DNA from: Candidatus Moraniibacteriota bacterium | GTDB lineage: Bacteria; Patescibacteriota; Minisyncoccia; Moranbacterales; UBA1568 | DNA: 48,403 nucleotides | Assembly (NCBI GenBank): GCA_023261695.1 | Contig: JAHFON010000005.1 | Location: 1 to 48,403 of the forward strand | Reading direction: 5' to 3' | Shown here: positions 9,123 through 23,689 of the stretch, piece by piece | How the letters are laid out: each line of letters opens with the position of its first letter | Position numbering within the stretch: the stretch's first letter is position 1 | Program-made: the position numbers and the translations under genes | Notes under the pieces: generated by a model | The model's database searches: none | Seen by the model: the letters and a program-made list of their open reading frames with translations, nothing else | What the model was told of the DNA's origin: nothing

Positions 9123-10199
9123 ATGCTGATTGAAGATGAACTGAAGGCTTTTAAGGCGCGTTTGGACCCGAAAATCGGGGCGTATTTTGACAAAGTGATT
9201 GCTGAAGCCGACAAAGAAGACGCGTTGGTGGCTGATGCGATTCGGCACTCGCGCAAGCTGGTTTTGTCTGGCGGAAAACGTCTGCGGGCGGCTTTTATGT
9301 ATTACGGTTATCTGGCCAGCGGCGGCGCGGATACGGAGAAAATACTGGAGGCGTCCGTGAGCATTGAACTGATTCATACGTTTCTTTTGGCGCACGACGA
9401 CATTATTGATCGGGACGATATGCGTCATGGAGTTACGACGTTGCACCGGCACTACGCGAATGTCGGCCAGACGTTTTTTCCCAAAAAAGACACAGAACAC
9501 TTTGGCAACGCTATGGCGATTATTGTCGGCGATATGCTGGGCGCTTTTGGGAACGACGTTATTTTTCGTTCGGATTTCGCGCCGGAGATGAAATTCGCGG
9601 CGCTCTCCAAGTTGCAGAACATTGTCTCTTTCACGGTCATCGGTCAAGCGCGAGACATATACATTGAATATCAAGGCAAAGCGAGTGAGCGAGAAATTCT
9701 TTCAATGTATAAAAACAAGACTGCCAAATATACCGTGGAGGGGCCGCTTCATTTGGGCGCGCTATTGGCCGGAGCGTCGGCAGAGTTGCTTAAAGAATTT
9801 TCGGCTTATGCTATCCCGCTGGGCATCGCTTTTCAGATACAAGACGATATTTTAGGTATTTTCGGCAATGCCAAGCGTTTGGGAAAACCGACCGGCTCGG
9901 ATATTCAAGAAGGCAAGATCACGCTGCTGGTTTCCAGAGCCCTGCGCGACGGGACCAAAGAGCAAAAGAAACGGATTAGGGAAATTCTGGCTCTGAAAGA
10001 TAAGCTTGCTGAAAAAGAGATCAAAGAGTTTCGCGAACTGATTGAAATAACGGGCGCAAGAAGCGGCGCCAAACAACTGGCGGAGCAATACATAGAAGAA
10101 GGCACACACTCGCTTGAGAGAGCGCGTGACAAAATGGACGCGCGGGCGTACAATTTTCTTTCTTCTGTGGCGGAGTATATGATGAATCGTGAATACTAA
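9123..10199 (+). CDS. Polyprenyl (FPP/GGPP) synthetase
   Basis: GGKRLR, first Asp-rich motif HDDIID..D.R.G, KTAKY, FQIQDD, DIQEGK. Confidence 0.95.
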   Translation: MLIEDELKAFKARLDPKIGAYFDKVIAEADKEDALVADAIRHSRKLVLSGGKRLRAAFMYYGYLASGGADTEKILEASVSIELIHTFLLAHDDIIDRDDMRHGVTTLHRHYANVGQTFFPKKDTEHFGNAMAIIVGDMLGAFGNDVIFRSDFAPEMKFAALSKLQNIVSFTVIGQARDIYIEYQGKASEREILSMYKNKTAKYTVEGPLHLGALLAGASAELLKEFSAYAIPLGIAFQIQDDILGIFGNAKRLGKPTGSDIQEGKITLLVSRALRDGTKEQKKRIREILALKDKLAEKEIKEFRELIEITGARSGAKQLAEQYIEEGTHSLERARDKMDARAYNFLSSVAEYMMNREY

Positions 10200-10241
10200 T
10201 ACCGCTATAAATTGCCAATCCGGTACAAATATACGAATATT

Positions 10242-10958
10242 ATGACTTTTGAAGAATCTCAATCGTTACCGAAACATGTAGTCATCATTCCTGACGGCAA
10301 TCGACGCTGGGCGGTCGAACGTGGCCTGCAGTCTTGGGAGGGACACGAAGCCGGTGCCCAAAACACGGAGAAACTGATACGGGAAGCCAAAAAACTTGGC
10401 ATTAAAGAAATGTCTTTTTGGGGATCGTCATTGGAAAATCTCTCCAAGCGTCCCTTGATGGAACGTCGAGCTTTGCTTCGCATTTACGAAACTTATTTCA
10501 AGAAACTCATTGCGAGCGAGGAAATCCATCAAGACGAAGCGCGGATCCGTTTTATCGGACATTGGGAGGAGCAGTTTCCGGATTCTCTCAAGAAAATTAT
10601 GTGCGAGGGCATTGAAGCGACCAAAAATTACGGTAAATATTTTTTGAATTTTTTCTTGGCGTACAGCGGCGATGACGAGATGCGTCTAGCTTTTGAAAAA
10701 GTCGCGCGTCTGCTTAAGGAAGGTGAGAAAGTGACTAATGAAATGATTAAAAATAGTTTGATGACGCGAGAATTGCCGCCGGTAGATTTATTGATTCGCA
10801 CGGGCGGCGAACCGCATTTATCCGCCGGTTTTATGATGTGGGATATCGCCAACACGCAACTTTATTTTTCCGATAAATATTTTCCGGATTTTGACGAAGC
10901 GGCTTTCTGCGAAGCGATAGCCGACTACACGGAAAGGCAGAGAAGGTTTGGGAGGTAA
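10242..10958 (+). CDS. uppS: Undecaprenyl diphosphate synthase
   Basis: HVVIIPDGNRRWA, SLEN..R, DLLIRTGGE.HLS.GF motifs. Confidence 0.95.
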   Translation: MTFEESQSLPKHVVIIPDGNRRWAVERGLQSWEGHEAGAQNTEKLIREAKKLGIKEMSFWGSSLENLSKRPLMERRALLRIYETYFKKLIASEEIHQDEARIRFIGHWEEQFPDSLKKIMCEGIEATKNYGKYFLNFFLAYSGDDEMRLAFEKVARLLKEGEKVTNEMIKNSLMTRELPPVDLLIRTGGEPHLSAGFMMWDIANTQLYFSDKYFPDFDEAAFCEAIADYTERQRRFGR

Positions 10959-11188
10959 GTAAAAAATTTTCAATTTCTGATTTTCATTAATGTATTATGC
11001 CTCTCAAAGTCGGTACAATCAAGACGCAACAAGACCTTCTTACAACAACAGTAGTAGGGTGATTCCTTTCGAGTTTCGGATAACATTGCCGGCTCCAAAC
11101 TGGCAGACAATCGCGCGTAAACAGCCCCCAGCTTCATAACTGGAGGAGGACTTTTTCATTTCCAGAGATTTTGCTATTATGTGTATGT

Positions 11189-11350
11189 GTATGAGCACGC
11201 TACAATTGAGCGAAAAGTAGCCTAAACCCCGGTTTTCTACCGGTGGCATGGTGAAAAGTCCAGTTAGACATAAAGAACCCATCATGTGGGGTGTCTAACT
11301 GGCCATATCGGGAAACCGGTATGAGGGGCTTCGGCCTCTACTCATGTGGT
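11189..11350. ncRNA. Candidate structured RNA (unassigned)
   Basis: Nested stems TACCGGT/ACCGGTA, ATGG/CCAT, CCAGTTAGACA/TGTCTAACTGG, plus a cUUCGg hairpin at 11324-11339. Confidence 0.45.
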
Positions 11351-11390
11351 GGGCTTTTTGTATTCAAAATTTAAATTTCAAGATTAAAAA

Positions 11391-11753
11391 ATGAAACCAA
11401 GCGGACAAGATAAAAACAAGCAACATCTAATATTTGTATTGCTCGATAAAGGACAATGTTTTTGTGTTTCTAAAAAATATCAAGAAGCAATTGAAATTTT
11501 TGATAGAATCTTAACGATTGATAAAGAAAATCCGGATGCATCAAGAGGCAGAGCTTTTGCAGTATCAAAATTAAAAGAACAGGAAAAAACTGAAAATCCA
11601 AGGACAGACATAATACCTACATCTCTGAGATGCGATATAAATGGAGATAAAATAAATGACAGGGGCTCCTATTCTGGAAAAAGAATAGAGAATAATACTT
11701 ATGATGAAGATTCTAATGATTTTGAAAATTTGCAAAAGATATATATCGATTGA
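11391..11753 (+). CDS. TPR-containing protein
   Basis: KG......KKYQEAIEIFDRILTIDKENPDA pattern typical of a TPR. Confidence 0.7.
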   Translation: MKPSGQDKNKQHLIFVLLDKGQCFCVSKKYQEAIEIFDRILTIDKENPDASRGRAFAVSKLKEQEKTENPRTDIIPTSLRCDINGDKINDRGSYSGKRIENNTYDEDSNDFENLQKIYID

Positions 11754-11761
11754 AATATTTT

Positions 11762-12787
11762 ATGAAAATAATAATAATTATTGTTATCACTTTGATGGGT
11801 GTGGCGAGTTTGATTACTTTTACTCCACAAGTTTCTGCTTTTATAACCCCTCATTTGAACACTCCATTACAGGTACAGATGACTCCTTCCCAAGAATGGA
11901 ATAACCAAGAAACCCGTAACAATCTGATAGCAACTTACGGTCTTTTGCTATTCAATTCTTGCAGTGGGAGTGAACAATATTGTACCAGCAGTATGGATTC
12001 GTACGGATATGCAACTTGTTTACGATTTGTTCAATTGGATCTTGCTCAGAGCATAAAAGATGGGTGCCGTGCATCATGCTCATCTGGTTATTACAGAGCA
12101 TCGAATGGCCAATGCCTAACGCCGGAGGCAGGATGTAACAAGGAATTTGGGCAGGACTCGCACTTTTTAAAGTACAATACAAAAGGTGAACCTGACTGTG
12201 GCACTTGTGCCAAGGGCGATGTTTGGGATCCTTATTATTCCAGATGCGTAGCCCAGACTCCGAGTGGAAGGCTCAACACTGATAATAAACTGACCAATGA
12301 TTGTGCCAGTGGTTATGAATGGAATTCAAGTCGAGATCGATGTGTTGTAATATCACCAAAAAGATCACAAGATCAAATCTGTAAAGATAGGTATGGAGAA
12401 AATAGCATATGGGATCGGACCATATATACCAAGTCCAAGAATTGGGCCCGAGTTACGTGTGATTGTGTAAGTGACTATAAGTGGAATAAGGAAAAGACAA
12501 TGTGTGTCGCATTACCGGTTACTCCAGCATCAAAGACTACATCTTCACAGACAGCCGATCTTAAAACTACAGAATCTCCTAATCTCAAAACACCTGATAC
12601 AAAGCTTCAGGATGTAACTTTCCCAAAGCTTCAGGATGTAACTTTCCCATCGCAAGTAAATAATTTTTCAACTGATGTCACTGCAAAATCACAAATAAGC
12701 AATCTTACGGTCAGTGAGGTTTCGAATACGCCAGTTTCCGCAAAAAATGGCTTCTGGTCGTGGTTTCTTGGTTTGTTTGGATATTAA
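11762..12787 (+). CDS. Exported cysteine-rich repeat protein
   Basis: Signal peptide; repeated C-x2-G/D-x2-W-x5-C units; Thr/Ser-rich linker; C-terminal FWSWFLGLFG. Confidence 0.75.
   Translation: MKIIIIIVITLMGVASLITFTPQVSAFITPHLNTPLQVQMTPSQEWNNQETRNNLIATYGLLLFNSCSGSEQYCTSSMDSYGYATCLRFVQLDLAQSIKDGCRASCSSGYYRASNGQCLTPEAGCNKEFGQDSHFLKYNTKGEPDCGTCAKGDVWDPYYSRCVAQTPSGRLNTDNKLTNDCASGYEWNSSRDRCVVISPKRSQDQICKDRYGENSIWDRTIYTKSKNWARVTCDCVSDYKWNKEKTMCVALPVTPASKTTSSQTADLKTTESPNLKTPDTKLQDVTFPKLQDVTFPSQVNNFSTDVTAKSQISNLTVSEVSNTPVSAKNGFWSWFLGLFGY
12600..12647 (+). repeat. 24-bp in-frame tandem repeat (KLQDVTFP x2)
   Basis: CAAAGCTTCAGGATGTAACTTTCC twice. Confidence 0.9.
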
Positions 12788-12802
12788 AATCATCAAAACA
12801 AT

Positions 12803-13189
12803 ATGCAAGACGAAAAACAGGCGGACAAAATTTCTGTAAATAACAGTATAAGCAGGAAAACGGCCATATTGTTGTTAGCTGTCGTATCCGTGCTTTTCAT
12901 CGGGTATAAATATATTTCCTCAGCCATAGACGAACAAAGACAGAAGGCGATAGAGGATAAAAAATTACAAGCAATTGAACAACAGAGAAATGAGTTGCTA
13001 CAGTGTTTGGATACAGCTAAAGGAGAGTTTGATAGAAAAGTGAAAACATCGAAAGAGTTCGGCTGGTATGATATGCAACATAATGGATTATCGCTAGATC
13101 AAGTCAATTCCCTAACAGCTCCAAAGATAGAAGCAGATAAGAAACAGATGGAAGTAGACAAGCAGGAATGCTACCAAATATACAAATGA
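12803..13189 (+). CDS. Membrane-anchored hypothetical protein
   Basis: Single TM then coiled coil with two Cys; operonic spacing. Confidence 0.7.
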   Translation: MQDEKQADKISVNNSISRKTAILLLAVVSVLFIGYKYISSAIDEQRQKAIEDKKLQAIEQQRNELLQCLDTAKGEFDRKVKTSKEFGWYDMQHNGLSLDQVNSLTAPKIEADKKQMEVDKQECYQIYK

Positions 13190-13935
13190 AATCCAGATTA
13201 CTGTATATCTACATCCTGATTATTCTCCTCCTTGCCGGTGGCGTTTTTGCTTATAAGAGTTCGCATAACGAACCACAAGTAATCAGTCCGCCACCAAAAG
13301 AAGAACCCCAGAGTACTTTTGACCAATCCTTTGGATTTGAGTGCCCAAGTGACTTTAAGACGTATAAAGAATATCTTGGTTCAATAGGTCAATGGGTGAT
13401 TAGATATACTGAAAAGTACCCCAGAGCAAGCACGGAAGAAATGATGGCTGTCCGGGATACGCTCAGAGAAAGGAATAATTGTGGGATACCACCCATTAAT
13501 ACAAGCACATCAGAACAATCAAAGAGTAACCTTCCTCAAAAGTACTATTTCAGTGATTCTAGCGCCGCTAAAAGTGGTAGTTGCCCAGGTATGGGTACCA
13601 GTTTGCAGGGGAAATATGACTCTGTTATACGGTATGGAGTCATCAAGTTTTCTTCGACTTCAGGGGACATACGGCTGAACTATTATGATATCAAGCAAGG
13701 GAAGGTTCTAGAGAGCTTTCAAGAGCATCCCTGGTTTTGGGCAGGCATTGACGATATAGATCATGATCAGTGTATGGAAGAATTTGCTCAATTCGTGGAA
13801 AGTAACAGAAATTCCATCTTTAAGATAGAGGGCAAAAAGGAAGGCGATGACTGTGTTTATTATACAAATGGGCCTTGTCTAGAAAACATCACGATAAAGA
13901 AGGCGACTGCCATAGGTGAATATACAGAGAGATAG
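13186..13935 (+). CDS. Membrane-anchored hypothetical protein
   Basis: ATGA overlap with the previous gene; N-terminal TM; paired Cys. Confidence 0.7.
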   Translation: MKSRLLYIYILIILLLAGGVFAYKSSHNEPQVISPPPKEEPQSTFDQSFGFECPSDFKTYKEYLGSIGQWVIRYTEKYPRASTEEMMAVRDTLRERNNCGIPPINTSTSEQSKSNLPQKYYFSDSSAAKSGSCPGMGTSLQGKYDSVIRYGVIKFSSTSGDIRLNYYDIKQGKVLESFQEHPWFWAGIDDIDHDQCMEEFAQFVESNRNSIFKIEGKKEGDDCVYYTNGPCLENITIKKATAIGEYTER

Positions 13936-13997
13936 CTTCACTGAGCTTGATATTGCCGCAGGATTGAGAAATCGTAGTTGTGGAGTATACTTGTATT

Positions 13998-15002
13998 ATG
14001 GAAGACATCTATACAATTCTTATTCTAATTTCATTTATTTGCTTGGTAGTTGGCGTAATTAAGCCAACTTTTTTCTCTCGTGTATTGAAAAGTTGGGCCA
14101 CGAGGGGGAGAATTGGTCTTGTTTTTGGCATTTCGACATTTATTCTCTTCGTCCTTTTTGGCATTACATCTGATAAAAATGAAGTAGCTCGGCAAGCGGA
14201 AGCCGCCAGATTGGCAGCCCAAATAATTGAATCAAAAAAACCGGAGGCAAACCAGGAAGAAGCGATAGCAGAGAGGAACAGTGAAAATCTCTTACCGGCT
14301 AATACGGATGTTCAGCAGGCTACATTGGTACCGGAAGAAGAAAAGAAAGCAGAGGAAACCTTTGAGGTCGTCAGAGCAGTTGATGGCGATACCATCGTGC
14401 TGAATATAAACGGCAAGGCAGAGACATTGAGACTCATTGGCATTGATACGCCTGAAACTGTCGATCCACGTAAGCCGGTGCAATGTTTTGGCAAGGAGGC
14501 TTCTGACAAGGCGAAAGCAACATTGAATGGGAAGATAGTGAAGATTGAAGCGGATCCGTCTCAAGGGGAGAGAGATAAATATCAAAGACTTCTTCGCTAT
14601 GTGTTTCTTGAAGATGGTACCTCGTACAATAAAATGATGATTGAGGAAGGATATGCTCATGAGTATACATACAACCTCCCATATAAATACCAAGCTGAAT
14701 ATAAAGAAGCCGAAACAAGCGCAAGAGACAACAAGAGAGGTCTCTGGGGAGATGTCTGTAATGGAAACACCTCACAATCCGCCCAAAACACAAGTACACC
14801 AAGCGCCGCTGCTGTTACTGCAGTCACAGAAGTGGAGCCAGAAAGAACGCCAAGCTCTTCCCTTTCATATGGCTGTAACTGTAAGAAGACCTGCGCCCAA
14901 ATGAGCTCATGTGATGAGGCTCAGTATCAGCTAAAGTCTTGTGGGTGTTCCGCTCGAGATGCAGATAAAGATGGGACAGCATGTGATTCTCAGTGCCAGT
15001 AA
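13998..15002 (+). CDS. Membrane-anchored thermonuclease (SNase) with C-terminal Cys-rich Excalibur-like domain
   Basis: VDGDTI, RLIGIDTPE, DKYQRLLRYV, RGLW motifs; C-terminal CAQMSSCDEA...DADKDGTAC. Confidence 0.9.
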   Translation: MEDIYTILILISFICLVVGVIKPTFFSRVLKSWATRGRIGLVFGISTFILFVLFGITSDKNEVARQAEAARLAAQIIESKKPEANQEEAIAERNSENLLPANTDVQQATLVPEEEKKAEETFEVVRAVDGDTIVLNINGKAETLRLIGIDTPETVDPRKPVQCFGKEASDKAKATLNGKIVKIEADPSQGERDKYQRLLRYVFLEDGTSYNKMMIEEGYAHEYTYNLPYKYQAEYKEAETSARDNKRGLWGDVCNGNTSQSAQNTSTPSAAAVTAVTEVEPERTPSSSLSYGCNCKKTCAQMSSCDEAQYQLKSCGCSARDADKDGTACDSQCQ

Positions 15003-15056
15003 ATATTTAACACATAGCGTATGCTGGCAAGTTAAAACTCAGCTTAATATAATGCT

Positions 15057-15584
15057 ATGTCAAGATACCTTGAGAAGGTCGAGCAAGTAGTCCGGAGTTT
15101 CAAAAGAATACCCCCACCAGGTTATCCTGAGTCTACCAAAGATGACGTGTGGGATTTTTACCGGTATTTTCTTCAAGATGCCTACCACCTTAAGGATTGG
15201 ATTGTATATGATGACTCGCTTGGTGTGAGTAAGAAAGAGATGGATGCCTTTATTGAAGGTAATATTTATATGAAGCTTCTTCAGTCAGTTGTAACAGGCA
15301 TCAAGCATTTAAAGGCTAACCATAAGCAAATAGTTTTTCCTAACCTTGTTCTTACGTGGGTTGATGAGGGCGGGTCAGAACCCAGTCCCGCGGTTTCATG
15401 TGGTGATTTAGTTCTTGGTATTGATGAGGAAGGATACTTTTTGTTAGAGGAAGATAGCAGCACAACGAGAGTAGAGAAACAAACGAAGACTGTGCACCCT
15501 AGAGTTTTAAGTGTAAAAGTTCTTGAAGCTTGGAATCAATTTTTAAAGAACCATGGTTTGGATGGTCATTTTGGGCTCTCTTAG
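15057..15584 (+). CDS. Hypothetical protein, possibly HEPN-like
   Basis: Helical N-terminal part with YHLKDW and TGIKH; family call is tentative. Confidence 0.55.
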   Translation: MSRYLEKVEQVVRSFKRIPPPGYPESTKDDVWDFYRYFLQDAYHLKDWIVYDDSLGVSKKEMDAFIEGNIYMKLLQSVVTGIKHLKANHKQIVFPNLVLTWVDEGGSEPSPAVSCGDLVLGIDEEGYFLLEEDSSTTRVEKQTKTVHPRVLSVKVLEAWNQFLKNHGLDGHFGLS

Positions 15585-15690
15585 GGGTCTACCCCGTGGC
15601 TTGCCGCGGTATCAAAGACAAGGTTGTCAGAGATACCTCGCCAGCTTGCTGCGCGGAGTATTCATTACTGAAATTAATTTAAAAAAAATC

Positions 15691-16683
15691 ATGGGATCCG
15701 GAGCTGATCGAAACAATCCCTGTCCATGTGGAAACGGGGAAAAGTATAAAAATTGCTGTATGGGAAAAATGGAAACGAGAAAATGCCCTCGATGTAAAAA
15801 AGACAATCAAATTGCCGAGGAGGCTCGAAAATTTCAATGTGGTCATTGCGGTGCCTATCTCTCAAAGGTTGATCGTCCCTCAGTAGTAGAAGTTCTCAAA
15901 ACGACTGATGATTTAGATAGCCACCTAAATCAGAGAGTGCTTCAAAACTTTCTAACTATGAACTTTCTGGACACTGCTCTATCTGATCAAGAGGGGCAGG
16001 GAAAGTTTATGCAGAGGCAAGTGAATGCCTTGCGTAGCCTAATGAAAGCTAACAAACACTTGCGCTGTTATCGGCGTGATGAGGTTACGGAGATGGAACG
16101 TCTCGGAAAAGCTAATGCCGAGTCAGGGACCACAAGCTATATTGCTTCTATCGAATCTATTGAGCTCGAAGCTGAGTGGGACGCCTATTTGGTTCAGCTA
16201 AAATCGGCACTGGACACTTTTGCTGGAGGCCTCGGTATCCTCGTTGATGTACCATTCCACGGCTGGCATTCGGACACTGATAGAGCAACTGGGAGGAAGA
16301 GAAGCGGTATAAAAATTCTGAATGCCCTGAAGAACATCGGTACTCCTTCGCCTGAAATTGAGGCAATGGTTTCTTTCTTGGAAGCCAATATGGAGTGGGT
16401 TACCCGTATTGTAGAGCTTCGGGATAAGCCAGTTCATCATGGTCAGTCAGTCGGAAGCGGCATTCATTTCAATCCTGAGCTAAGCACCACGCACAAGGCA
16501 AAAATTATTCATGATAAAAATCAATCAGAAGACATCGCTACTTTTATGGAACGTACCTTGAAAGATATGGCTTCTTTTTTTCGAATGCTCACGTATTTGG
16601 GAATCAATCATCGGCTTGATAAAGGCTTTAAGATGGGTGTGGACAAAGACGATAACTTTATTATCGTATTCCCGTCTGTGTAG
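15691..16683 (+). CDS. SEC-C motif / Zn ribbon / HEPN-like protein
   Basis: RNNPCPCGNGEKYKNCC (SEC-C), CPRC..CGHC, and R-x4-H (RDKPVH). Confidence 0.7.
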   Translation: MGSGADRNNPCPCGNGEKYKNCCMGKMETRKCPRCKKDNQIAEEARKFQCGHCGAYLSKVDRPSVVEVLKTTDDLDSHLNQRVLQNFLTMNFLDTALSDQEGQGKFMQRQVNALRSLMKANKHLRCYRRDEVTEMERLGKANAESGTTSYIASIESIELEAEWDAYLVQLKSALDTFAGGLGILVDVPFHGWHSDTDRATGRKRSGIKILNALKNIGTPSPEIEAMVSFLEANMEWVTRIVELRDKPVHHGQSVGSGIHFNPELSTTHKAKIIHDKNQSEDIATFMERTLKDMASFFRMLTYLGINHRLDKGFKMGVDKDDNFIIVFPSV

Positions 16684-16821
16684 GGATGGTTGATAGGGGA
16701 GCCCGAAATTTTTTCCAATAGACAGAGTAATTTTTTTCAAACGTTGATGCCAGTGTCTCTCAATAGCGTGAGTAATCTCTGTACACAGAGAAACAAGAAT
16801 ATTCTGGCTTCGTGTAAATAC

Positions 16822-17334
16822 TTACCCTTTGATCAAGTCTTTTAGATCCATTGCACCCTTTACGATACTATCATAGCCAGCGCGGTCACATAAACTAAGG
16901 AATCGTTCAAACTTTTTGGTGTAGTTACCATTATAGAGAATTCTACCCATGCTTGCCCGGCTATCACTTAGTTTTTGTAGTCGATTTAACCGGTATAACA
17001 CCTTACCCGCTACCGAATGGCGGTTGTAGGTGGTTAATTGATACTGGAGCCCATGACAGCGTCTGCACTTGAATTCGTGACCATTTAGCGGCAAATAGAG
17101 TTTAGTAGCTCGATAATCACACATACATCGAAAATAGGCTCGCGCGCCATAGGTAATATCCCTCCACTCTAGGGCTATCTTCTGAGGCTCATTCCCAGAC
17201 ACGCTAATGCACCAATCTGACTTATCATCCGGATCTTCTGCCCAAAAGTTTATATCCGCACGCGTTCCAAGCCCCAGTAGGAGATCCTTTGGAGTCAACG
17301 TGTAGCAATTTTCAACAAATAATTCAGTGTTCAT
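16822..17334 (-). CDS. Zn-finger hypothetical protein
   Basis: YFRCMC.YRATKLY...FKCRRCHGLQY motif. Confidence 0.7.
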   Translation of the reverse strand: MNTELFVENCYTLTPKDLLLGLGTRADINFWAEDPDDKSDWCISVSGNEPQKIALEWRDITYGARAYFRCMCDYRATKLYLPLNGHEFKCRRCHGLQYQLTTYNRHSVAGKVLYRLNRLQKLSDSRASMGRILYNGNYTKKFERFLSLCDRAGYDSIVKGAMDLKDLIKG

Positions 17335-17589
17335 ACAAATGTGATTTTGTAGTTATTATTCATGGCGGTTTTTCCATGATGGGGAGGAAAGTTCTGGATT
17401 GCCCGGCATGGAAGCTTCTTTGTGCCTGCAGGTACGATTCGCCATCAAAGTAACTAAACCGGGCTACTGATAGTCTATTGTTGCTCCTGCTTCTGTTGCC
17501 TGCTGTTGTAGATCTCTTATGATTTTCTGCTATTATTAGCCTTCTTTTGTTTGTTATTTCCTGTATTCTTTTTTCCGAATTTAGCTCAA

Positions 17590-18105
17590 TTGGGCAAGAG
17601 GGGGGAGTATGCCGTCCGATTGGTACGTCATTATGGTCCTGTGTATTTGATTCCGTTGTTTCTCGGAATACACGTCTGACTGACTATCGGTACCTGGATC
17701 TCACAGGATTTTCGGCGACTCGCCCATAGACTATTTCCACTAGCTTTCGATTGCCGTACCGTTTTGGTATGTCATATGTACGCCCATCAGTAGGACAACG
17801 TACACGTTTACATCTCTTCTCTGATTTTCCTAATACGGGCTAGGGGTCTGATGAGACCTGTAACATAGATATCAGGTCACTAGCTCGTATTGGGCCCTAG
17901 ATTGCTGTCTAGAGAGCATCAGGAGGAGTCGTTATTTTAATGGCGTCCAGCAGGCGGATTAACGATTGCCTCCACACCCTGCCAGTAACTCCGCATCGGC
18001 ATTGCTACCTTTGCAACGTACCGAGCTTTATTAGCGTTCGGTCGCTCACCCCACATTTTATTGAAAGGTAGGAACCAAAATCACACTGCAATTTTGATTC
18101 CTACT
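17590..18105. ncRNA. Large ORF-less, hairpin-dense region (candidate ncRNA or ssDNA origin)
   Basis: At least eight stems, including a 15-bp stem 17829-17843/17880-17894 enclosing GACCTG/CAGGTC; no credible ORF; strand ambiguous. Confidence 0.45.
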
Positions 18106-18535
18106 GAAGATTATCAAAGTACCAAAAACTTCTTCGAAAATCAGTCAATTTTCGGTATTTTAATGGAAACACAATAAAAAAGCGCTTTATAGCGCTATTT
18201 TTGTCTTAATCTGCTTCTTCCTCCAGCATTTCAAGTTAACTGCTTGCCTCAAGGTCAATTTTCAAAAAAATTGCGAAAAATATTTTTACCGGCATTGATT
18301 TCCGAAGTGAAAAGAGATCAAAATCCATTTTATATCCGCCACGCGAGCGATAACCCTACCACTACCCCATCATCTCTAAAGGAGGAGGTATGAGTATACC
18401 CCCCAATCAACATATTGCCTTAATTTAGCCATTTTCTTCTGGCTATACCACTTTATGGGTATTAGGAGCTCACTAATCAGTGACAACGAGCTCCGGCATG
18501 CTCGGTCGAGGCATGTGTCACATCCATATACAAGT

Positions 18536-18724
18536 ATGAAAAGAGAACAAACAGTATCATATGCCCCCGGCGCTACAGCAACTAAGCCAATGATTCGGAT
18601 TGCCAACCGGTTTCTTGAGGAGTACGGCTTTACAGTGGGGGACAGGGTCGAAATCAATTATGCAGACGGTCTAATTACCATTACTCATATAAATCTATAT
18701 GACCACGACAATACAATGGCCTGA
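18536..18724 (+). CDS. SymE/AbrB-fold protein (SymE-like toxin or regulator)
   Basis: PMIRIANRFLEEYGFTVGDRVEI matches the SymE pattern P.I.L.G.WL...GF..G..V.V. Confidence 0.7.
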   Translation: MKREQTVSYAPGATATKPMIRIANRFLEEYGFTVGDRVEINYADGLITITHINLYDHDNTMA

Positions 18725-18890
18725 GGCCATATCCCACCAAAAACGGGAACTTATTACACAACTAATCCTTCAAAACATTGAAAGCGATGAGGATAGAGAT
18801 CAATGGTTAGATGAACTTGAAACGGCTACCGCATATGATGGAGAAGAAATAATGGCTAATCTACTGGAAAATATAGCGCCAAAACTATAA
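18699..18890 (+). CDS. Small acidic hypothetical protein
   Basis: 63 aa ORF overlapping the SymE-like gene. Confidence 0.55.
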   Translation: MTTTIQWPEAISHQKRELITQLILQNIESDEDRDQWLDELETATAYDGEEIMANLLENIAPKL

Positions 18891-19011
18891 ATCTACTGGG
18901 AACGTCAAAGTTTTTGGTACTTTGGTAACGTTAGTAAGGAGGTTTTAATGGGTCGAATTATAACCACACCTGAAACAACATCAAATTTATAAAGGTAGAG
19001 AGAAAAAACAT

Positions 19012-19251
19012 ATGATCTACAAGAAATCTGAGGGTGAGCCTACAGCACTCCTAATCTCATGCAGAGACGAAGTAGCGGTGCAGGACAGACTGACATTCCA
19101 CTCGTATTTGGCGGGAACTCTGCGTATCACGCACTGGATTGAAGAGACAGATGATCTCGAGTCAAGGCTCGAAAGCATGTATGACATCCTCTTTGAGGAC
19201 GTAATGCAGAGCAGGGGAAGTAGCGGTACAGGGAATGAGGCAGTGAATTAA
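19012..19251 (+). CDS. Small hypothetical protein
   Basis: 79 aa ORF leading the recombinase operon. Confidence 0.5.
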   Translation: MIYKKSEGEPTALLISCRDEVAVQDRLTFHSYLAGTLRITHWIEETDDLESRLESMYDILFEDVMQSRGSSGTGNEAVN

Positions 19252-19281
19252 TAATCTTTTTAAGAAGTAATAAATAACATT

Positions 19282-19740
19282 ATGACCAAGACAACTAAAA
19301 AAGACCAAAAACGCGTTGCGATCTATGCGAGGGTAGCATCTTCAGGTGTTGTGGCTGAGAGAAGCCTCGCAAGACAACTCGATGAGATAAGAAAACATGC
19401 GAAAGAGAAAGGACATATGGTCTTTAAGGAATACTGCGATGTAGGCATAAGTGGAGGAACCGAAAACCGGCCGGCGCTTGATCAACTGAGAAAGGATGCC
19501 AACAGAGGGTGTTTTGAAGAGGTTCTATTACAAACGTCAGAAAGGTTGGCACGCGGGTACCCACTCATGGCTTTGTTTTTAGACGAGCTGGAAGAGCGGG
19601 GAATATCATGTGTATCAGTTGCCAAGCCAGTTTCTCTTTTATGTATTGGCATACAAGAGGAGGATTTGGCAGGCATGCAAGAGGGGCTTCCGTTCAAGCA
19701 CCCGGGCAGATATGAGGCAAACAGAGCAAAAAATGAATAA
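19282..19740 (+). CDS. Serine recombinase catalytic-domain-only protein, catalytic Ser apparently replaced by Ala
   Basis: AIYARVAS (consensus YxRVS), D.GISG...RPALDQL, ERLAR; no DNA-binding domain. Confidence 0.8.
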   Translation: MTKTTKKDQKRVAIYARVASSGVVAERSLARQLDEIRKHAKEKGHMVFKEYCDVGISGGTENRPALDQLRKDANRGCFEEVLLQTSERLARGYPLMALFLDELEERGISCVSVAKPVSLLCIGIQEEDLAGMQEGLPFKHPGRYEANRAKNE

Positions 19741-19754
19741 AATAATGAAAATTT

Positions 19755-21542
19755 ATGAGCGACATAATTGAAAAGGAAACCAAGCTGATAGCGGTTTATG
19801 CTAGAGTTTCCACTTCCGCACAGGAGGAACAGGAAACTATCGAGGCGCAGCTTTTGCAGGTACGCCAATTTGCTGATAAGCACGCCTATACAATCGTAAA
19901 TGAGTATCTCGACAATGGATGGAGTGGTGACAGTATTATAAGACCAGCTCTCGATCAGCTCCGGATAGATGCGAAGAAGAAAATATGGGAAGGGGTTTTG
20001 ATATATGATCCGGATAGATTAGCTCGCAGATACTCGTATCAGGAGCTGGTTATGGATGAGTTACGTGAAGCTGGTATAGAAGTGATATTTGTCACTACTT
20101 CTGCTCCCAAAAATGAAGAAGATAAGATTCTGTATGGAGTTAAGGGATTATTTGCTCAATATGAGAGAGCAAAAATTGCGGAGCGTTTCCGCATAGGAAA
20201 GATTAACCGAGTAAACTTGGGTCATGTGCTAACAACGGAGGCGCCATTCGGCTACACGTATATACCGAATATGGGTAAGAGAGGTACAAGTGAGTATGTT
20301 TTTGGCTATTACAAGATCAATAGAAACGAAGCGAAAGTTGTTGGCATGATCTTCAAATGGGTTGCCAATGATGGATTAACTCTGAGGGCTGTTGTACGGA
20401 AGCTACAAGAACAGAGCATACCTCCTCGCCGGAGTAAGCGGGGCGTATGGAATACAAGCACGTTGAGTACTCTTTTGCGCAATCAAACCTATATCGGCAA
20501 GGCACATTGGGGATCTTCCTATGCCGTAGTTCCCGCGAAGCCATTGAAGGATGAAAAATACAGGAAAATTAAAAAATCAAGCAAGCGTATGAAGCCAGAA
20601 AGTGAGTGGCTGTCCATTCCTGTAAAAGCCATTGTGAAGCAGGATCTTTTCGATCGTGCAGGACAAAGATTAAGGGAGAATTTTGCAATGATGGGACGGA
20701 ATAAGAAGAATGATTACCTGCTCGCTGGAAAGATCTGGTGCGCCTGCGGGAGAAGAAGGGCTGGGGAAGGACCGCAACATGGAAAACACCTTTATTACCG
20801 ATGCACAGATCGAGTCTATAGCTTCCCATTACCTCGTACTTGCAATGAGGGGGGGATCAATGCCAGAATTGCCGATGAAGCTGTGTGGCAGAAACTCAAG
20901 CAAATCATGAGCACCCCAGCATTAATGCTGTCTCAAGTTGAGCGATGGATGGGTAATCATAAAAGTAATGAGAGCAAGAGAGTCGTTATGGATATCGAGA
21001 ATGCTGAAAAACAAATAGCAAAACTAAATGGGCAAATGGATAAGTATGCCAAGGCTTACTCTGCAGACGTCTTTACTCTCAAACAGTTGAAGGGCTATCT
21101 GGCACCTCTGAAAGAAAAAATGGCTGTATTGGAAAAAAGTCTTGCTCAGGCCTATAGTGAGCAATTGCCAAAACTTGAAATGGCAACGCCGACCATCGAA
21201 GAGATAGAACTCTTTGCCAAAGACGCCACAAAAGCCTTGGATGGCTTGAGATTTAGCTCTAAGAAGGCTATAATTGGGAAAACTATCGATAAAATCATTT
21301 CTACTCAGAGAGATCTACAGTTCTACGGCTTTATCAATTTACAACAAATACATGTCGAGTTCATCACTGAGAGTCGGTATTGTCGGTTTGCCCAACGTGG
21401 GGAAGTCCACCCTGTTCAAAGCGCTGACGCGCAAAGCGGTGGATATCAACAACTATCCTTTTTGTACCATAGAACCCAACGTGGGGATTGTGGAAGTGTC
21501 AGATTCTCGCCTGTCGCAATTAGCCGCGCTTTCTCGAAGTAA
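19755..21542 (+). CDS. Large serine recombinase (integrase)
   Basis: YARVST, DRLAR, APFGY recombinase domain, [16 protein letters not shown] Zn ribbon, coiled coil; reads through the right att site into ychF in another frame. Confidence 0.95.
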
Positions 21543-22410
21543 AAAAATTATTCCGGCGGTCATTGAATTTGTGGATATTGCCGGTTTGGTCAAAGGGGCG
21601 AGCGAGGGAGAAGGTTTGGGCAATAAATTTCTTGGGAGTATTCGCGAAGTGGACGCGATAGTGGAGGTGGTGCGGGTGTTTGAAAATCCTAATATTATTC
21701 ACGTTCACAATCGCGTCGCGCCGACGGAAGACATTGAAATTATCAATGTTGAACTTATTTTGTCCGATTTGGAGACGCTGACCAAGCGCAAATTCAAAAC
21801 CGCCAAAGACGCGCGCGCCGGAACCAAATCGGCTGTGGCGGAAATGAGCGTGCTGGAAAAATTGGAGACGGCGTTGCAGGCAGGCAGTTTGGCGCACGCT
21901 GTGATACAGAAATTTTCAGACGAGGAGCGAAAAATCGCGCAGTCTTTGCAGTTGTTGACCGCCAAGCCGTTTTTTTATGTGTATAATGTTTCGGATATCG
22001 ATGCTGATTTAGGCTCTGAACTGGAAAGCCGTCCCCACGTGAAACTGGATATCAAAATTGAAGAAGAACTGCTGGAAATGTCGGCGGAAGAAATAATTGA
22101 AATGGGACTGCGGTCGCATTTGGGCGATCTTTCGCAAAGAGCCTACGCCCTGCTTAATCTCATCACGTATTTTACCACCGGCGAAGACGAAACACGCGCC
22201 TGGACGATTGTTCGCGGATCTACCGCGCCAATCGCGGGAGCGGCTATCCATACTGATTTTCAAGAAAAATTCATTCGGGCGGAGGTTATTCATTGTGAAA
22301 AATTACTGGAAGCTAAATCATGGAGCGCCGCTCGCGACGCAGGCTTGCTTCGTTTGGAAGGCAAAGAATACATCGTCCAAGACGGCGATGTGGTTGTATT
22401 TAAGATTTGA
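21352..22410 (+). CDS. ychF: Ribosome-binding ATPase YchF (N-terminus supplied by the element)
   Basis: [55 protein letters not shown]. Confidence 0.97.
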
Positions 22411-22459
22411 GTTTATCCGAATGATTGTTGAGCATTTTATTTTGTGATAAACTTGTTTT

Positions 22460-22753
22460 ATGACTACGGAAATTATCAAGAAAAAAATAGTCCCGATTCT
22501 CAAGCGCCGAGGAGTTCTCAAGGCAGCTGTTTTTGGGTCGGCCGCAAGAGGTAAAATGACAAAAAAAAGTGATGTTGATTTATTGTTGGAGATCTCACAA
22601 AATAAAACGCTTTTTGACATAATAAAGCTTAAATTGGAATTGGAGGAAAAATTAAAAAGAAGTGTGGATATAGTGGAATATAGCGCCATCCATCCTCTTA
22701 TTAAAAATCAGGTTTTGAAAGAGCAAAAAAATATATATGAAAAGAGACCCTAA
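22460..22753 (+). CDS. Minimal nucleotidyltransferase antitoxin (MntA-like)
   Basis: FGSAARG.....SDVDLL motif. Confidence 0.92.
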   Translation: MTTEIIKKKIVPILKRRGVLKAAVFGSAARGKMTKKSDVDLLLEISQNKTLFDIIKLKLELEEKLKRSVDIVEYSAIHPLIKNQVLKEQKNIYEKRP

Positions 22754-23075
22754 ATTATTTTTCGCGGATATCTTTGAAAGTATTGAGTTGATTGAAAAAT
22801 ACACAAAAGGTTTGACGTACGAAAAATTTATTAAAAACAATACAATTCAAGATGCGGTATTGAGGCGTTTTGAAATAATTGGAGAAGCTGCAAAAAATAT
22901 TCCAGATAATATAAAAAAGAAACACCAGAATATACCATGGAAAGAGATGGCTAATATGAGAAATGTAATTTCTCATGAATATTTTGGTATCACTATGAAA
23001 AGAATTTGGAATACGGCAAAAAAGGATTTGCCAAAACTTAAAAAGCAAATTTCAGGCATTTTTATAACATCTTGA
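22737..23075 (+). CDS. HEPN (DUF86) toxin, HepT-like
   Basis: DAVLRRFEIIGEAAK, IPW, RNVISHEY (R-x4-H). Confidence 0.92.
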   Translation: MKRDPKLFFADIFESIELIEKYTKGLTYEKFIKNNTIQDAVLRRFEIIGEAAKNIPDNIKKKHQNIPWKEMANMRNVISHEYFGITMKRIWNTAKKDLPKLKKQISGIFITS

Positions 23076-23314
23076 GTTGCATCGCTCTCTCGTCTGGAGG
23101 GCAAAGAATACATCGTCCAAGACGGCGATGTGGTTGTATTTAAGATTTGAGTTTAATGCCTATTTATGGGTAAAATGTGGCCATTGACTTTTTCTATATT
23201 TTAGTGTAAAATAAGCTGTTGCAAAATCCAGTGCAATAGGTTCCTTAATAATTGGAAATTATCCATTAGGAAAAATAGGAAAAACAATCGTTAGATAAAA
23301 AAGGAGAAGTGTAG

Positions 23315-23689
23315 ATGAAAAGACAGATGAAGAGAATTTCAGTACTAGTTATCGCTCTTGTGTCATTAGTTTTTCAGGGTTGCGCGCTTTATTCGGTCGC
23401 TAGTGGGATTGGCGGTGGAGGTCCATTTGACTCTCACCCGAGGAGAGCGGTAGACCCAATCGTTCACGCTCGGGAGGAGTGTCGCCTAGTGAAGAGTGTA
23501 GTCGATTCGAAGGTTCGGGCGTATGACGAAGTGGTATTTTTTGAAGGAGAAGCCACTGTCGTCAGTAAAATAGGAATGGTACGTTCTGGAGAGAGGTATT
23601 TGGTAGGAGTTGACACCTACCAAAGTGGCACTGTTTCAATATCCTTTTTGTGGAGTTTAAATAACCACCTTGTACCTTGCCGTCGCTAG
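23315..23689 (+). CDS. Putative lipoprotein
   Basis: Signal peptide with FQG-C lipobox-like site; own promoter and SD. Confidence 0.6.
   Translation: MKRQMKRISVLVIALVSLVFQGCALYSVASGIGGGGPFDSHPRRAVDPIVHAREECRLVKSVVDSKVRAYDEVVFFEGEATVVSKIGMVRSGERYLVGVDTYQSGTVSISFLWSLNNHLVPCRR

Follow-up and report, generated by a model that had tools for sequence, protein, structure and literature searches.

What fills the long stretch without genes upstream of a small zinc-ribbon gene in a Patescibacteria-type genome, and what does it do there? The DNA that raises this question, called the window below, is the 48,403-nt stretch formed by positions 1 to 48,403 of contig JAHFON010000005.1 (assembly GCA_023261695.1), from a Candidatus Moraniibacteriota bacterium whose Patescibacteria-type genome comprises 860 kb in 43 contigs. 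A first-pass annotation, made from the sequence without database searches, saw no credible open reading frame (ORF) between 17335 and 18450, and no ORF of more than 60 aa lies wholly inside that interval. It read the dense stems found there as a large non-coding RNA (ncRNA) or a structured origin. We find that the stretch is a genuine folded RNA gene of small Patescibacteria mobile elements, previously undescribed, which is read from the minus strand with a predicted 5′ end at about 18103, just upstream of the gene for a 170-aa zinc-ribbon protein (hereafter ZnR). The large ncRNA of the first-pass annotation is thereby borne out by conservation, covariation, a pseudoknot and the lack of a conserved reading frame. 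As to function, the reading we favour, with a probability of about one half, is that this large, compact ncRNA is a module of serine-recombinase integrative elements, most likely serving the replication or maintenance of the element after its excision.

Pattern scans for ZnR recovered 11 loci in species genomes and a further 30 in metagenomes, each denoted below by L and a number. Ten loci with identical matches and scores were dropped as copies (L018, L019 and L020 (= L003), L023, L026, L027, L033, L036, L037 and L039), leaving 31 distinct loci and, with the window, 32 ZnR sources. Full-length relatives of the RNA lie adjacent to ZnR in nine other distinct loci (L002, L003, L008, L013, L021, L022, L028, L029 and L034), and a tenth, L016, holds a copy cut at the contig end. 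The RNA, conserved beside these ten further ZnR genes with covarying helices, is present in 11 of the 32 sources, window included; a covariance model (CM) found nothing in the other 21, where ZnR occurs without it. The same conserved set was returned by blastn, nhmmer and R1, a CM of 141 positions. The sequences fall into two subtypes that have the 5′ third and the 3′ end in common and diverge in the middle. Nucleotide identity to the window is 0.64–0.75 for the RNA, compared with 0.58–0.67 for the adjacent ZnR gene.

The folding energy taken alone is modest, and it is therefore covariation that carries the case. For a 10-sequence alignment (A4), RNAalifold led to a structure with 112 pairs arranged in 19 helices, or 1085 cells. 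Pairing is seen in 88.0% of these cells, against 38–46% when the partners are slid by 1–3 columns, and both sides have changed in 62 of the 112 pairs, against 18–23 when slid; none of 500 column shuffles attained the observed value on any of five measures. The five-sequence alignment of subtype 1 (A3) behaves alike, with 90.2% of cells paired against 37–42%, and both-sided changes in 37 pairs against 5–10. As judged from these alignments, the RNA has at least ten covarying helices, a helix joining its 5′ and 3′ regions, and a pseudoknot. When all A4 column pairs were scanned for additional covarying stacks, none emerged beyond the known helices. Across the family G.U combinations occupy 177 cells and A.C combinations 45, and the functional strand is therefore the minus strand of the window. 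The first-pass annotation had G.U usage favouring different strands in different stems; this impression arose because helix 15, in the window's own sequence, leans the other way, the only helix to do so. By energy, the minus strand of 17335–18110 folds at −228.1 kcal/mol; 20 dinucleotide shuffles average −191.0 ± 6.5, which corresponds to z = −5.8, and the plus strand has a z of −3.1. The earlier proposal to compare the fold with shuffled sequence thus gives −5.8 for the whole interval and only −2.0 for the 528-nt RNA by itself (30 shuffles), the reverse complement of which reaches −2.5.

The helices and other features of the locus are collected in Table 1. Helix 7 joins the 5′ third to the C-rich 3′ end, and its arms read GGAGU/ACUCC or GGGAA/UUCCC according to subtype. 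Helices 8 and 9 are formed by 17985–17978/17954–17947 and 17974–17971/17958–17955, respectively. The GCC/GGC core of helix 10 consists of three invariant pairs, and hence has no covariation support. The 6-bp pseudoknot, between 17965–17960 and 17934–17929, is Watson–Crick in 59 of 60 cells with three or four pair types at all six positions, whereas slid controls give 14–26 of 60 cells; it was spotted by eye and then counted with fixed anchors, L013 being given a 4-nt offset. Helix 12 of A4 (17926–17920 with 17766–17759) is probably wrong, since by eye both subtypes pair this strand with a segment that follows helix 15 (helix 8 of A3).

Several stems drawn in the window at first pass recur as helices of the family: 17641–17673 corresponds to helix 18, 17777–17804 to helix 17, 17895–17914 to helix 13 and 18069–18103 to helix 1, while the hairpin at 18000–18042 spans helices 4 and 6. 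The stem at 17829–17894 was correct in its outer part, which is helix 15, but the inner GACCTG/CAGGTC belongs to an insertion specific to the window, the conserved inner pairing being CUGAU/AUCAG. The small hairpin at 17714–17724 falls in a variable stretch and is unsupported. Three end-to-end pairings had also been put forward, of which 17604–17608/17988–17992 survives as helix 7 and the other two are not kept in the homologues (by eye, A4). These pairings were said to cross; a pseudoknot does exist, but elsewhere in the molecule.

Table 1 Features of the RNA locus and of the sister loci. Coordinates are those of the window unless a locus is named; "both-side" counts the pairs in which both sides have changed.
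Feature	Coordinates	Strand	Remarks
ZnR, 170-aa Zn-ribbon protein (CxC...CxxCH), uncharacterised family	16822-17334	-	
A-rich spacer between RNA and ZnR start codon	17335-17584	-	window-specific; much shorter in L003, L021, L028, L029
Structured RNA gene	17585-18103	-	~520 nt; ends predicted from onset and stop of conservation and from helices
Helix 7, 3′ arm ACUCC	17604-17608	-	within conserved C-rich 3′ block
Helix 10, 3′ arm GACGGC	17611-17616	-	pairs with 17944-17939
Helix 18, hairpin of 3′ domain	17641-17673	-	95.7% paired; both-side 7/7
Helix 17, hairpin	17778-17803	-	as A3 helix 13: 100% paired; both-side 3/10
Helix 15, long hairpin	17837-17886	-	both-side 9/13; extra loop insertion in window
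Helix 13, hairpin with conserved ACAGCA-type loop	17893-17917	-	both-side 6/8
Pseudoknot, 3′ strand UAACGA	17929-17934	-	downstream of helix 8
Helices 8 and 9, domain with conserved G-rich internal strand	17947-17985	-	97.5% and 98.3% paired
Pseudoknot, 5′ strand UCGUUA	17960-17965	-	in loop of helix 9
Helix 7, 5′ arm GGAGU	17988-17992	-	pairs with 17608-17604, closing the molecule; 95.7% paired; both-side 3/5
Helix 6, hairpin	17993-18014	-	97.1% paired; both-side 3/7
Helix 4, hairpin with conserved A-rich loop (GAUAAUAAAGC-like)	18015-18046	-	78.9% paired; both-side 3/9; loop near-invariant in A4
Helix 1, long 5′ hairpin (18101-18088/18084-18071)	18071-18101	-	89.6% paired; both-side 9/14
Perfect palindrome, terminator-like on both strands, then conserved block upstream of RNA	18181-18196		common to Rep-type L006
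Rolling-circle Rep	L004 2792-3631; L005 3186-4004; L006 3151-3978; L041 1966-2808		
HTH_36/DnaD-like protein and IstB/DnaC-like ATPase, upstream of ZnR	L035 866-2666		third kind of replication module at the site

The RNA does not encode a conserved protein: indels of 1–3 nt break every frame within its most conserved part, and the longest stop-free stretch in the family is 44–85 aa. Nor is it a housekeeping RNA, because RNase P RNA and tmRNA are encoded elsewhere in the source genome (contigs C16 and C29) and the RNA is single-copy and not found in sampled relatives. A cmscan with Rfam 15 returned nothing on the RNA (window at gathering scores; 16500–19000 at E ≤ 10; six homologous loci at E ≤ 1). 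The families covered included raiA, group I/II introns, RNase P, tmRNA and 6S, as well as ROOL, GOLLD, OLE and HEARO, the four that the first-pass annotation had named for comparison. Only weak Rfam matches occur nearby, and they fall in the upstream palindrome. The RNA is also rare. It is single-copy in the four RNA-bearing genomes (G000, G401, G402 and G403). BLAST did not find it in 400 further Patescibacteria genomes sampled, which included two from the same genus, nor did a CM search of 150 sampled Patescibacteria genomes, and blastn gave no match in GenBank phages or PLSDB plasmids. Two degenerate DNA patterns matched at least 118 and 14 stretches in IMG/VR; these are taken as chance matches because nhmmer saw no RNA in the 80 and 14 stretches fetched. 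No account of such an RNA was found in the part of the full-text literature that was accessible.

Comparison of what lies upstream of ZnR in the sister loci provides the main clue to function. Between a shared regulatory block and ZnR, nine loci carry the RNA. Four others have a rolling-circle replication protein (Rep) of ~275 aa directly upstream of ZnR (PF23343 REP_ORF2-G2P, with HUH-type motifs; PHROG replication initiators), and L035 has the DnaD/DnaC-like pair. One of the Rep-type loci, L006, has the window's palindrome and upstream block and then goes straight into ORFs. The CM detected no RNA in the Rep-type loci or in two whole Rep-bearing genomes checked, and a PF23343-type Rep was not found in the four RNA-bearing genomes (one query; other initiator families were not searched genome-wide). 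The arrangement of RNA and ZnR varies. The 3′ end of the RNA is within about 100 nt of the ZnR start in L003, L021, L028 and L029, another ORF intervenes in L002, L008 and L013, and L022 and L016 carry the RNA on the opposite strand, about 270 nt downstream of ZnR, so that the two are convergent. Because it is a convergent, separate unit in these last two loci, we regard the RNA as a stand-alone gene and as more than a leader; the observations fit an independent, folded and probably trans-acting gene belonging to the element. The palindrome upstream of it has the form AGCGCT-N4-AGCGCT between A and T runs, with related hairpins in L003 and L028, and could act as an operator between divergent units.

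ZnR itself has an invariant CxC...CxxCH zinc-ribbon signature. No Pfam family scored above threshold for it, or for any of 17 distant members scanned, and PHROGs gave no match. Its AlphaFold model (pLDDT 83) matched nothing in the PDB by Foldseek at E ≤ 0.001, and the best hit of a wider structure comparison (Z 5.3) covered the C-terminal helices only and is uninformative. The family has 1341 representatives at E ≤ 0.001; homologues fall into 45 clusters, the few named ones being Patescibacteria metagenome-assembled genomes, and in the ESM Atlas only hypothetical-protein clusters were seen, some labelled Uroviricota. ZnR was not found in IMG/VR or by tblastn in phages and plasmids, and two distant relatives were not found in phages. 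The ZnR tree mixes loci of the RNA, Rep and DnaD/DnaC types, with L034 (RNA) sister to L035 (DnaD/DnaC) and L004 (Rep) sister to L038. Since all locus types are interleaved, the modules have been swapped repeatedly. The first-pass annotation had the RNA partnered with the zinc-finger protein. The two are adjacent in all 11 copies, which lie at most about 550 nt from a ZnR gene, and ZnR may bind the RNA; adjacency is what speaks for such a partnership, while the ZnR genes that have no RNA and the mixed tree speak against it. Several other features were noted around ZnR. The ZnR gene of L007 (4001–4625; = L039) is split into two overlapping ORFs of 111 and 151 aa, probably by a frameshift. A second small Cys-rich, Zn-finger-like protein, of 76–77 aa, accompanies ZnR in L004 (3660–3893), L005 (4637–4867), L008 (3647–3877), L035 (2650–2880) and L038 (2659–2892); L002 and L013 have a different Cys-rich protein of 83–84 aa, and the window has neither.

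The RNA lies inside a strain-specific island of ~10 kb, at about 10.9–21.4 kb of the window. Two genomes of the same genus and one of the same family give no nucleotide match to the island, whereas the flanking uppS-like and ychF-like genes do match. At its end, serine recombinases are encoded at 19282–21542, namely a truncated resolvase (152 aa) and a large serine recombinase of 595 aa. The tail of the 595-aa ORF overlaps the start of the ychF-like gene (21274–22410), near where similarity to the relatives resumes, and this overlap is probably the right edge of the island. Synteny did not fix the borders, as the flanking genes of the relatives are on different contigs, and among contigs from three DNA runs compared with 9500–23500 none spans the island, nor was an excision junction or empty site seen. 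Clustering of ORFs over the loci revealed a common backbone, which comprises a divergent operon and an opposite, rightward unit ending in ZnR. In the divergent operon lie genes for a protein resembling ArdC-N, one resembling SymE/AbrB and a third, small protein. In the window the SymE/AbrB-fold small protein is at 18455–18724 (+), and it is kept in the divergent operon of 13 loci with or without the RNA. Cargo carried nearby by sister elements includes an HsdM methylase, a C-5 methylase and a Z1-domain protein.

On the reading we favour, transcription would start from the conserved block upstream of the 5′ hairpin, and in most elements the RNA would run ahead of the ZnR gene. After excision, the folded RNA would serve the element's own replication or maintenance; it could itself initiate or prime replication, or form the core of a particle that also contains ZnR or a host protein. 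This role is inferred from position, because a Rep or a DnaD/DnaC-like pair occupies the RNA's usual site in sister elements. That the RNA stands in for a Rep gene, as the first-pass annotation proposed, thus has positional support from the four Rep loci and the one DnaD/DnaC-like locus, and the argument is one of position throughout. Its most explicit version is rather unlikely in our judgement: here the RNA would replace the HUH Rep or DnaD/DnaC-like module outright and initiate replication of the excised circle, or its strand transfer, as a structured primer or origin RNA, or as a nicking or joining ribozyme, possibly with ZnR as cofactor.

A number of observations weigh against the favoured reading or against the evidence behind it. 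The paired percentages are inflated relative to the slid controls, because the structures were derived from the same alignments, and the relatedness of the aligned sequences also flatters the A3 and A4 figures; there are only 10 full sequences, in two subtypes and mutually related. The minimum free energy of the RNA alone is modest, with z from −1.6 to −4.9 over ten family members, and the reverse complement of the window's sequence folds as well as the RNA strand. A sigma-70 scan gave the RNA no canonical promoter, nor was a terminator seen at its 3′ end, for which reason its ends are placed by prediction, and none of the sequencing runs checked was listed as an RNA run holding the stretch. 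Adjacency of RNA and ZnR is partly built in, because all loci were found via ZnR. When RNA subtype or upstream module is mapped on the ZnR tree, the number of changes required is no smaller than with shuffled labels, which gives no sign of co-evolution between RNA and ZnR. Finally, L011, L024 and L038 have neither RNA nor Rep upstream of ZnR. In L024 this may be a flank effect, as the contig stops right after a ZnR identical to that of L016, whose RNA lies downstream. Vacancy in some loci means that the site may be a mere variable cargo site, which weakens the argument from position.

This last point leads to the strongest rival, tentative as it is, in which the site upstream of ZnR is a variable cargo site and the RNA a stand-alone cargo for defence, counter-defence or host manipulation, comparable to GOLLD and ROOL on prophages. 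The site is vacant in some loci and differently occupied in others, sister elements have defence-like neighbours (the two methylases and the Z1-domain protein), and module types are shuffled on the ZnR tree. However, two of the alternative occupants are replication initiators and not cargo, RNA and Rep were not found together in six genomes checked, and the RNA stays beside ZnR in all 11 copies despite rearrangement. We consider a cargo with an unrelated role nearly as likely as the replication reading. The remaining explanations are each contradicted by specific results. The RNA could be a cis-acting 5′ leader of ZnR, a very large riboswitch-like or attenuator RNA, as its closeness to the ZnR start in four loci and the lack of a terminator between RNA and ZnR in the window might suggest. 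This is improbable given the convergent arrangement in L022 and L016, the intervening ORF in L002, L008 and L013, and the ZnR genes of Rep-type and other loci that manage without the RNA; a molecule of ~520 nt that closes end to end and contains a pseudoknot also far exceeds the known leaders.

Covariation is blind to whether a fold acts as RNA or as single-stranded DNA (ssDNA), and many sister elements encode an ArdC-N-like protein with an ssDNA-binding domain. The structure might therefore be a single-strand origin, as the first-pass annotation allowed, or a single-strand promoter used after transfer or rolling-circle replication. Single-strand origins of rolling-circle plasmids accompany a Rep, and do not replace one, which makes an origin unlikely because structure and Rep were not found together in the loci or genomes checked. 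The heavy use of G.U pairs also argues for RNA, and we know of no single-strand origin with such a size, multi-helix junction and pseudoknot; the ssDNA explanation is, if anything, slightly less probable than the leader. Least probable of all, to the point of being nearly negligible, is that the stretch is the remnant of a protein gene, for example a defunct Rep, or that its structure arose by chance. The RNA does sit where other elements have a Rep, and the first-pass annotation had named decay as something that would speak against its reading. Yet four Rep proteins used as tblastn queries had no match at E ≤ 0.01, either in the window or in the RNA-type loci, the RNA is at least as conserved as the neighbouring gene, and its changes are compensatory in helices and not codon-wise, with the frame-breaking indels described above.

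Other features of the window and its relatives were recorded in passing. LOOT RNA (Rfam RF03000) is present at 11219–11339 (+) and in 7 of the 18 sister loci scanned (L002, L005, L011, L012, L022, L028 and L034). It usually lies just upstream of an ORF, a related secreted-looking protein following it in the window, L012 and L028, and appears to be a component of the element family. At 13980–15002, also in the island, is a secreted-looking staphylococcal-nuclease homologue with a C-terminal, Excalibur-like Cys-rich tail. Just outside the island, 22460–23075 encodes a nucleotidyltransferase and HepT-like RNase pair of the MNT/HepT toxin–antitoxin type. The window opens (1–1666) with a 23S rRNA gene holding two group I introns (59–332 and 1150–1346), followed by a 5S gene and tRNA-Thr. 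In L013, a tRNA gene at 27–98 stands at the edge of the divergent operon and might serve as an integration site.

Large bacterial RNAs with intricate folds are rare, and every new class so far has opened new biology, among them ribozymes, RNA–protein machines and RNA cages. This one comes from the little-studied Patescibacteria, and its comparative support is strong for so few sequences. Closely related elements with either this RNA or a protein replication initiator directly upstream of ZnR provide an unusually pointed functional lead, and make it testable whether an RNA module can replace a Rep-type protein in a DNA mobile element. If that were true, an RNA would have taken over from a replication-initiator protein. 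Should the replication role prove wrong, the family would still be a good target for structure determination and a new Rfam entry.

Among known systems, ColE1 RNA II, a plasmid replication primer of ~550 nt, is a folded RNA of similar length that allows a replicon to dispense with an initiator protein of its own. The RNA described here differs in that its C-rich 3′ end is engaged in helices with the 5′ part, with no sign of an origin there, its loops are far more conserved than a primer needs, and a scan limited to the sigma-70 consensus found no antisense promoter-like site on the plus strand of 17585–18103. HEARO and the omega RNAs of IscB and TnpB are likewise structured RNAs beside a small Zn-motif ORF in mobile DNA. 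However, ZnR has no RuvC or HNH family match and no known fold, and it also occurs without the RNA, which lies within the element and matches no HEARO model. Group I/II introns and RNase P RNA are comparable in being large and in having a pseudoknotted core and ends that meet; their models did not match here, though the same scan caught the two group I introns in the 23S gene. LOOT RNA shares the same elements, but is a separate RNA of 121 nt, unrelated in sequence and upstream of other ORFs. GOLLD and ROOL are carried by prophages or other mobile DNA. Together with OLE they resemble the present RNA in size class (~500–800 nt), many helices, long-range closure, pseudoknots and the lack of a known biochemical function (partly after PMC12286853). 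What sets the present RNA apart from these three, besides having no Rfam match, is that it was found only in Patescibacteria-type loci, always beside ZnR and at a site that a Rep can also fill.

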